Below are positions 6,953 through 7,148 of a DNA stretch of 58,949 bases, piece after piece. A program made the position numbers and the translations under genes. The notes beneath the pieces were generated by a model. That model was not told the origin of the DNA and made no database searches. It saw nothing but the letters and a program-made list of their open reading frames with translations. Position 1 is the first letter of the stretch, and every line of letters starts with the position of its first letter. This stretch comes from Escherichia phage ECO95 1-6-1, in sequence record OR845257; one strand, given 5' to 3'.

Positions 6953-7148
6953 CACGCCGCGTATATCATGCAGCACCATAGCGGGCCGCCATACGGCATA
7001 GCGCACACATAAGGCCGCATTGATGCACGTCGTGTATATCAGGAAGGAAGAAAGCAGGACGGGCCGCCATACGCACGCCGCGTATATCATCGCACACGGC
7101 ACACCATAGGCCCGCTACACGGCACCGCAACGCACGCCGCGTATATCA
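6953..7148 (+). repeat. four direct copies of the promoter-spacer 16-17-mer CACGCCGCGTATATCA(T) lacking good -35/-10 elements
   Basis: copies at 6953-6969, 7026-7041 (variant CACGTCGTGTATATCA), 7074-7090, 7133-7148. Confidence 0.6.

Follow-up and report, generated by a model that had tools for sequence, protein, structure and literature searches.

The window, meaning the whole 58,949-bp stretch of DNA analysed here, is a complete Chivirus genome, circularly permuted and opened at an arbitrary point. Megablast with positions 6000–10000 retrieves more than 100 Chi-like phages of Salmonella and Escherichia (Chivirus, Casjensviridae) at 93–100% identity. The Chi reference sequence is given in the opposite orientation, its reverse complement being the plus strand of the window. 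The cohesive-end site, cosN, was placed by aligning both ends of NC_025442 to the window, together with the known 12-nt overhang of Chi and Utah. This 5' overhang, GGTGCGCAGAGC, was determined experimentally for both phages (PMC4342425, PMC5374247). The right end of the virion chromosome begins at position 6713. A block of about 260 bp flanking cosN retains 69–75% identity to Redjac, L040 and S9a and probably holds the core packaging signals; alignability stops before the repeat array described here. An 84-codon open reading frame spans cosN (6563–6817, minus strand), and the same gene is annotated in Utah. It could be expressed only from joined ends and its ribosome-binding site looks weak; its conservation could equally come from cos itself.

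The array lies 241–437 bp inside the right cohesive end, within the 540 bp of non-coding DNA beyond the last gene (gp75 in Chi; window 7253–7546, minus strand). This bears out the gene-free location beyond the leftward terminator given in the initial annotation: the hairpin and T-run are present and strong in the leftward direction, and the stretch has no coding annotation in Chi or Utah, with small indels among relatives. Four co-oriented sites, A to D, and a degenerate fifth, E, are arranged along it (table 1). The same annotation listed three identical copies of a 17-mer, CACGCCGCGTATATCAT, and one variant, and equated the 17-mer with the spacers of two minus-strand promoters. The copies at 6953 and 7074 are indeed exact, that at 7133 carries one mismatch (last base G) and the variant at 7026 carries three. 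Likewise the promoter spacer at 9493(−) is exact, and that at 11894(−) differs at one position (last base A). The homology reaches 3 nt (ACG) further upstream, giving 20-mers at 6950–6969, 7071–7090 and 7130–7149. With up to three mismatches allowed, the whole window contains seven matches to the 17-mer, at 6953(+), 7026(+), 7074(+), 7133(+), 9493(−), 11894(−) and 49781(+), against 0.34 expected from shuffles and a shuffle maximum of 2. The match at 49781(+), with three mismatches, is assumed to be chance, and those outside promoters then form a single cluster at 6953–7149 beyond the terminator.

Sites A to E succeed one another at 73, 48, 59 and 58 bp; measured from the right cohesive end, they lie at 247, 320, 368, 427 and about 485 bp. 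Their core, ACGC-C-GCGT, is a 9-bp near-palindrome; a conserved tail, TATATCA, makes the Chivirus site asymmetric. The GC content across the array is 0.52–0.57, and the AT skew of the region is +0.34 to +0.40, a strong excess of A over T. Interleaved with the sites are CCATA(C/G/T) motifs (8 observed against 0.16 expected, with 0 on the opposite strand). CATACGC is the half-site of a palindrome found in Redjac, and the CCATA motifs may be extra half-sites of this kind or a cos-related polar signal.

Table 1. Features of the array, the cohesive end and the early promoters, in window coordinates.
Feature	Position	Strand	Sequence or remark
gp3-like protein	2848–3129	+	93-aa helix-turn-helix protein; weak binder candidate
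cosN-flanking block	6641–6899		alignable across genera; includes box GTACCTTTTTGAAAT at 6738
cosN	6701–6712	−	12-nt 5' cohesive end GGTGCGCAGAGC, identical in Chi (NC_025442) and Utah
CCATA(C/G/T) motifs	6848–7108	all +	n = 8; interleaved with array sites
Site A	6950–6969	+	ACGCACGCCGCGTATATCAT; exact 17-mer at 6953–6969
Site B	7023–7042	+	variant GATGCACGTCGTGTATATCAG; preceded by TTGATG, 5 of 6 positions of TTGACG
Site C	7071–7090	+	ACGCACGCCGCGTATATCAT, exact; preceded by CCAT, reading CCATACGC
Site D	7130–7149	+	ACGCACGCCGCGTATATCAG, one mismatch; 8 bp before terminator A-run
Leftward-operon intrinsic terminator	about 7158–7186	−	GGCCGCC-loop-GGCGGC and TTTTTT; between sites D and E
Site E	7190–7206	+	degenerate copy ACATGGGGAATATGTCA, just beyond terminator
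Early promoter	9487–9515	−	TTGACG-CACGCCGCGTATATCAT-TTATAT
Early promoter	11888–11916	−	TTGACG-CACGCCGCGTATATCAA-TTACAT
Early promoter	12512–12540	+	TTGACA-TACGTCGCGTGTAGAAC-TATTGT; related spacer core
Early promoter	15824–15852	+	TTGACG-TACGTCGCGTGTACGAC-TAATAT
Early promoter	19026–19054	+	TTGACA-TACGCGACATGTGTAAT-TAATAT; variant core
Early promoter	21237–21266	+	TTGACA-CACGTCGCGTGTATAACC-TATATT

The spacer element with and without a promoter

A scan of the genome with the pattern TTGACN-N16-18-TANNNT returns eight sites. Six carry the core (T/C)ACG(T/C)CGCGT(G/A)TA directly after the −35 box, and across these six strong early sigma-70 promoters the core amounts to the near-palindrome ACG-N3-CGT-RTR. 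The array copies match specifically the two leftward promoters (…GCGTATATCA), not the rightward class (…GCGTGTA…). A common hairpin leader follows each of the leftward promoters, 9515(−) and 11916(−). The seventh strong promoter (2777, before gp3-primase) is without the core; promoter function does not, therefore, require the element in general. The eighth site, 25681(−), with its weak second hexamer, is probably a chance match.

Two of these promoter regions have features of their own. The gp3-primase promoter (2777–2847, plus strand) carries a separate palindrome, TTGACAgaTGTCAA, overlapping its −35 box, and ACACGCGCACA, present in its leader, is conserved in L040 and Redjac; autoregulation of the gp3-primase operon is a possibility. 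At 19026–19090(+) and 21237–21294(+), a terminator hairpin and T-run follow within a few bases of the promoter, and the predicted start sites lie inside the left arm of the hairpin stem. As terminator hairpins directly follow two promoters, a Q-like antiterminator reading of the spacer element was raised; that reading was abandoned, as the stems contain the predicted start sites. These terminators should therefore act only on upstream transcripts, not on those of their own promoters, each unit forming a compact terminator–promoter insulator.

The array copies are flanked by degenerate hexamers, as first described. In the promoter register they match TTGACG at 3, 5, 3 and 3 of 6 positions and TATAAT at 0–2 of 6. 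A sigma-70 consensus scan of 6820–7150 on both strands finds nothing promoter-like. Given these hexamer scores and the empty scan, the array is not a set of sigma-70 promoters. The further proposal that the hexamers have decayed holds in part. Site B retains most of a −35 box, and Chi, SeF2 and several other phages have (A)TTACA after site C, as in the 11916 promoter; by its sequence this looks like a relic of shared ancestry, or of an exchange of sequence, with the 11916 promoter. The hexamers are missing in nearly every lineage, which speaks against functional promoters still in the course of decay. Consensus sites for sigma-28, sigma-32, sigma-54, sigma-E, IHF, LexA and the marbox, compared by eye, do not fit the motif. 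An Rfam search of the array gives only sub-threshold matches on the terminator hairpin, which are hairpin artefacts, and RNA folding energies reveal no excess structure over shuffles (z = −0.33 and −0.96); a structured or known RNA is ruled out by these results.

Constraint, position and drift of the sites

Thirteen distinct Chivirus sequences were aligned from cos to the terminator, and variable columns were counted within 6940–7152. The four 20-nt sites contain 10 in 80 columns, against 59 in 137 between sites (Fisher p = 2e-6). The most diverged members, SP-088 and SP-124 (FSL), have four perfect sites, site B included, and within the genus site E varies only as RTRTRTCA. One change has spread through the array. 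In SP-039, ZCSE8 and Season12 (SP-030 lineage), the same T-to-C substitution replaces GTATATCA by GTATACCA in all four sites, and Chi and ST-W139 carry this change in site A only. The pattern of substitutions points to stepwise concerted evolution of the array, with some homogenization among its sites in the SP-030 lineage. The promoters of Season12 retain GTATATCA and GTATATAA despite the changed array; array and promoters can therefore evolve independently.

Comparison with related genomes reveals sites of the same kind, in the same orientation, in each Serratia, Providencia and Klebsiella relative. The array region itself is unalignable across these genera, where only the block around cosN can be aligned. 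Site positions were therefore expressed as offsets from the box GTACCTTTTTGAAAT in that block to the CGT of each site. A site occurs at offset 220–223 in all 12 lineages examined (site A, 222), and most lineages have further sites at 338–347 (site C, 343) and 401–408 (site D, 402). The position of the degenerate Chivirus site E (about 460) is occupied at 459–464 by good copies in Smarc5, L040, L034 and the Redjacviruses; that of site B (offset 293) is specific to Chivirus. The sites thus approximate a 60-bp lattice, and they keep the same orientation throughout the lineages. From the box to 30 bp beyond the terminator match, the distance is 461–466 bp in Chivirus, Smarc5, L040 and L034, despite at most about 68% identity. 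In these four the terminator lies between D and E, and in Redjacvirus it lies after E; the lattice, not the position of the terminator, is therefore the conserved feature. The array of Klebsiella phage S9a includes a complete promoter, TTGACA-N16-TACAGT (L174 718–746), which points inward from the cos end and is degenerate in the close relatives L064 and L299. An ungapped comparison of the window with Smarc5 (p = 0.07), blurred by compensating 1-bp indels, was left unused. Pattern scans of IMG/VR with AAGTACCTTTTTRAA and GGCAATAAAAAAGCCGC returned mostly unrelated contigs, and the cos pattern occurred at 44 metagenomic loci, one of them a Chi-like relative.

Array and promoters drift in parallel. 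The core is retained in promoter spacers of Serratia phage Smarc5, Providencia phage Redjac, contig L034 and Klebsiella phage S9a, and the tail that follows it is characteristic of the lineage: TATATCA in Chivirus, TATGTA in Redjacvirus, GTGCAA in Yonseivirus and TrTAyCA in Smarc5. In Chivirus, array and promoters alike have CGTATATCA. In Redjac, three of the four array sites and most promoters carry CGTATGTA, and the sites are palindromic, reading CATACGCgGCGTATG. In Smarc5 the promoters have CGTGTATCA and the array CGTrTAyCA. In Yonseivirus S9a the promoters read yACGnnnCGTgtGCAAC and the array elements ATGTGCATT, CGTGCAATT and GAGTGCAAG; L064 and L299 are alike. A test for shared 8-mers was informative only in Redjac; noise obscured it in Smarc5 and in the window genome, which is GC-rich. 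Redjac has 19 genomic clusters that share the array's repeated 8-mers, and 4 of them lie within promoters, which make up 0.6% of the genome. Such parallel drift is expected if both sets of sites are read by a single trans-acting factor of drifting specificity, and the lineage-specific identity of array and promoter motifs argues for base-specific recognition. Recurrent exchange of sequence between promoters and array is the alternative. That the spacer itself is the selected element, as originally proposed, is supported by three lines of evidence: the low variation of the sites relative to the DNA between them, their fixed positions across genera in the absence of hexamers, and the drift of their sequence with that of the promoter spacers.

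Possible functions of the array

The reading we favour, at about even probability, is that the array comprises four to five promoterless, co-oriented sites for a factor that reads the early-promoter spacer. It retains the candidate operator of the initial annotation as the best account of site constraint, fixed positions and co-drift with the promoters. We infer from these observations that a protein binds the sites; its nature, the direction of its effect and the part played by the array are proposed as follows. (i) The factor, probably dimeric and phage-encoded, would recognize ACG-N3-CGT and the lineage-specific RTRTRYCA tail after the −35 box. (ii) At the promoters, sitting between −35 and −10, it would compete with RNA polymerase. 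Binding at this position normally excludes polymerase, and repression or early shut-off would therefore be expected. (iii) In the array, the sites would assemble a higher-order complex of fixed geometry on the ~60-bp lattice; the fixed geometry implies that assembly is cooperative. (iv) This complex would flank the terminator that ends the leftward early operon, between operon and cos. (v) The likeliest role of the sites would be that of auxiliary operators, which could raise the local concentration of the factor or loop to the promoters 2.4 and 4.8 kb away. The array could also buffer the factor, or insulate cos and the replication module from early transcription. Several observations fit an operator poorly. 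The spacings of 73, 48, 59 and 58 bp are not whole helical turns. Strict locking to the cos end suits a packaging or DNA-end function better than a simple operator, the conserved tail always alternates purine and pyrimidine and is compatible with an intrinsic DNA property, and the concerted change confined to the array in one lineage would be expected if gene conversion acts among the array sites or if their binder is a different one.

Among the early and replication-region proteins compared, a gp3-like helix-turn-helix protein is a weak candidate for the binder because it is the only recognizable DNA-binding protein present family-wide. It is conserved in all lineages, and its putative recognition helix is variable. 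A low-confidence AF2 model (pLDDT 65) gives a weak Foldseek resemblance to XRE/Cro/C-protein folds; there are two database homologues and no sequence relative in the PDB. No covariation of its sequence with the array is found, the protein being identical in Season12 though four of four array sites have changed. The protein is no more than a lead. Pfam and PHROGs searches with about 40 early and replication-region proteins yield no DNA-binding candidate in the early operons. Two other proteins were rejected. The DUF7609 protein has no PDB relative and is unlike a DNA binder. The gp1-like XRE protein (5747–6088, minus strand) is not conserved outside Chivirus, and more probably goes with lineage-specific TTGTAAC repeats upstream of its own gene. 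These repeats (at least nine TTGTAAC/GTTACAA in ~6150–6500, where GC content is 0.30–0.42) have equivalents in Redjac (CTTACT/AGTAAG) and S9a (TTGTAAT), and predicted promoters among them use GTTACA as a −35 box.

The array might instead extend the cos region, its sites, perhaps with the CCATA motifs, binding the small terminase or another end-handling protein in packaging, circularization or leading-end entry. The likeness to promoter spacers would then reflect shared ancestry or a dual-use protein. This is the main rival reading; we consider it unlikely, though it accounts for much: the placement of the array so near cosN at the right virion end, offsets and a non-coding length (461–466 bp in four diverged lineages) that are kept though the sequence is not, the common direction of all sites and of 8 of 8 CCATA motifs, and the concerted evolution of the array, independent of the promoters, in one lineage. 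It leaves unexplained the presence of the same lineage-specific motif in early-promoter spacers of several genera. The alignable block at cosN can already account for core cos functions, and the array stands further from cosN than the R sites of lambda cosB (50–170 bp). The terminase genes, moreover, lie more than 10 kb from the opposite (left) end. The complex envisaged for a spacer-reading factor could also serve packaging or the DNA end as a second role.

A combination of the two ideas is decidedly doubtful. An operator-motif lattice held at fixed distances from the probable first-entering end would form a cos-linked regulatory complex, through which early transcription would have its timing or shut-off physically coupled to a genome-end process (DNA entry, circularization, or cos cleavage and packaging). 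If the phage behaves like lambda, its right end would be the last to be packaged and the first to enter, and the array would be the first phage DNA in the cell. To our knowledge, cos phages have not been reported to carry a cos-linked regulatory element of this type.

The orientation of the copies is that of promoters pointing inward, and they could be cryptic or conditional promoters used by a modified RNA polymerase or with an activator, to give short or antisense RNAs or to pull in DNA as T7 A1–A3 do. The complete promoter in the S9a array, in the same orientation, and the 5 of 6 positions of the −35 box kept at site B lend this some support. It is nevertheless improbable: apart from the S9a promoter, no site in any lineage has hexamers, that promoter is itself degenerate in two close relatives, and neither a sigma-28, -54, -32 or -E consensus (by eye) nor an RNA structure signal is seen. 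A similarly small probability attaches to the view that the sites are neutral relics of promoter duplication, or a tract with an intrinsic structure (alternating purine–pyrimidine, Z-prone or flexible) that has no specific binder. Promoter homology does extend into the flanks (ACG upstream; ATTACA downstream of site C in Chi), and the tail alternates purine and pyrimidine in every lineage though its sequence differs. Neutral copies would not vary less than their surroundings, or hold their positions across genera while the surroundings randomize; constraint and positional conservation therefore exclude neutral decay, and the lineage-specific identity of array and promoter motifs points to base-specific recognition. 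Replication-origin iterons, whose initiator would also autoregulate promoters as in iteron plasmids, would explain why four to five direct repeats, each with an internal dyad, lie in a non-coding hub near the primase module and why the motif recurs in promoters (compare P1 incC and the repA promoter), yet are very improbable given spacings of 48–73 bp in place of ~22-bp tandem repeats, a GC content of 52–57% with no adjoining AT-rich unwinding element, and better origin candidates in the TTGTAAC repeats of the AT-rich 6150–6500 region and five CTTACTTGAAAAAG repeats at 12230–12480.

The latter repeats, read on the minus strand, are direct copies of CCGG(G/A)T..(C/G)TTTTT(C/G)AAGTAAG in an apparently non-coding gap of ~590 bp between the divergent promoters 11916(−) and 12512(+). 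CTTACTTGAAAAAG is also repeated in the equivalent gap of S9a (L174 4900–5130), and the cos-proximal box at 6733–6751 has CTTTTTGAA in common with them. These repeats are candidates for origin or regulator sites. The E. coli Chi octamer, GCTGGTGG, has 25 copies in the 59 kb (10 plus, 15 minus; about one per 2.4 kb), a raw count with composition not factored in.

Gene regulation in the Casjensviridae (Chi-like phages) is essentially unstudied, although these flagellotropic phages serve as tools and biocontrol candidates, and the function of 34 Chi-like genes beyond the lysis module is mostly unknown. No paper in the library searched contains the motif strings, and keyword searches on Chi-like promoters found no relevant study; the genome papers on Chi and Utah do not mention these repeats (PMC4342425, PMC5374247). 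The analysis defines a likely early regulon of six promoters with one common predicted operator, and a conserved cluster of predicted promoterless operators with a geometry tied to the cohesive end. The 17- to 20-bp element offers a bait for the regulator and the array a target for testing early shut-off, and also for testing a coupling between transcription control and genome-end handling. Should the array prove to be only an auxiliary operator or a sink, it would be a neat, unsurprising addition to known phage regulatory designs.

Comparison with known systems

The incA and incC iterons of plasmid P1 form an array for titration and handcuffing. As in the Chi-like phages, a motif embedded in a promoter recurs in a separate promoterless array, which could buffer its binder, as in the titration array suggested by the initial annotation. 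The P1 sites serve a replication initiator at an origin, whereas the Chi-like array adjoins neither an AT-rich element nor an initiator gene. Iteron origins combine tandem repeats at short spacing with an AT-rich element; here the repeats are 73, 48 and 59 bp apart.

In phage lambda, cosB combines R sites for gpNu1 with an IHF site, and the R sites lie 50–170 bp from cosN on the terminase-gene side. Both systems place a few repeated elements, protein-binding in lambda and predicted to be so in the array, at fixed distances from cosN in non-coding DNA, and the offsets of the array stay within a few bp across genera. The elements of cosB stand directly at cosN on the side where packaging starts, whereas the array is 241–437 bp away at the opposite (right) end, behind the 260-bp conserved block. 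Its motif is also held in common with early promoters, and lambda R sites are absent from promoters.

The stoperators of L5 and other Cluster A mycobacteriophages are asymmetric, oriented copies of an operator that lie outside promoters and are bound by the repressor of the early promoter. They number dozens, are scattered through transcribed regions and stop elongation; the array is one cluster, mostly beyond a terminator and outside a transcription unit, and so lacks the many dispersed sites in transcribed DNA that mark them. Stoperators are the subject of PMC9283540 and PMC6550527. Gp36 of mycobacteriophage D29, a lytic phage, is according to its abstract a small MerR-like repressor; its targets are GC-rich direct repeats, and it adjusts expression both early and late (PMC12266134). 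Phage and motif are unrelated to those described here, and that abstract reports no link to cos geometry or to promoter spacers.

As in operator systems, the same element occurs in the core of the promoters presumed to be regulated, the 17- to 20-mer being the spacer of the 9515 promoter and, with one mismatch, of the 11916 promoter. Purifying selection and co-variation with promoters are likewise found, except for the array-only change of the SP-030 lineage. Promoterless auxiliary operators include the CI sites FL and FR of coliphage 186, the looped OL and OR of lambda and the dispersed C1 operators of P1. All are distant copies of a promoter-embedded operator, set apart from promoters, that take part in cooperative or looped complexes, and the distances from the array to the leftward promoters (2.4 and 4.8 kb) resemble that between OL and OR. 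The Chi-like phage differs from these systems in being lytic, with no known repressor, and in carrying the element in the spacer of six promoters. Its array also differs in architecture: the four to five sites all point one way and follow a lattice of about 60 bp that is locked to the cohesive end.
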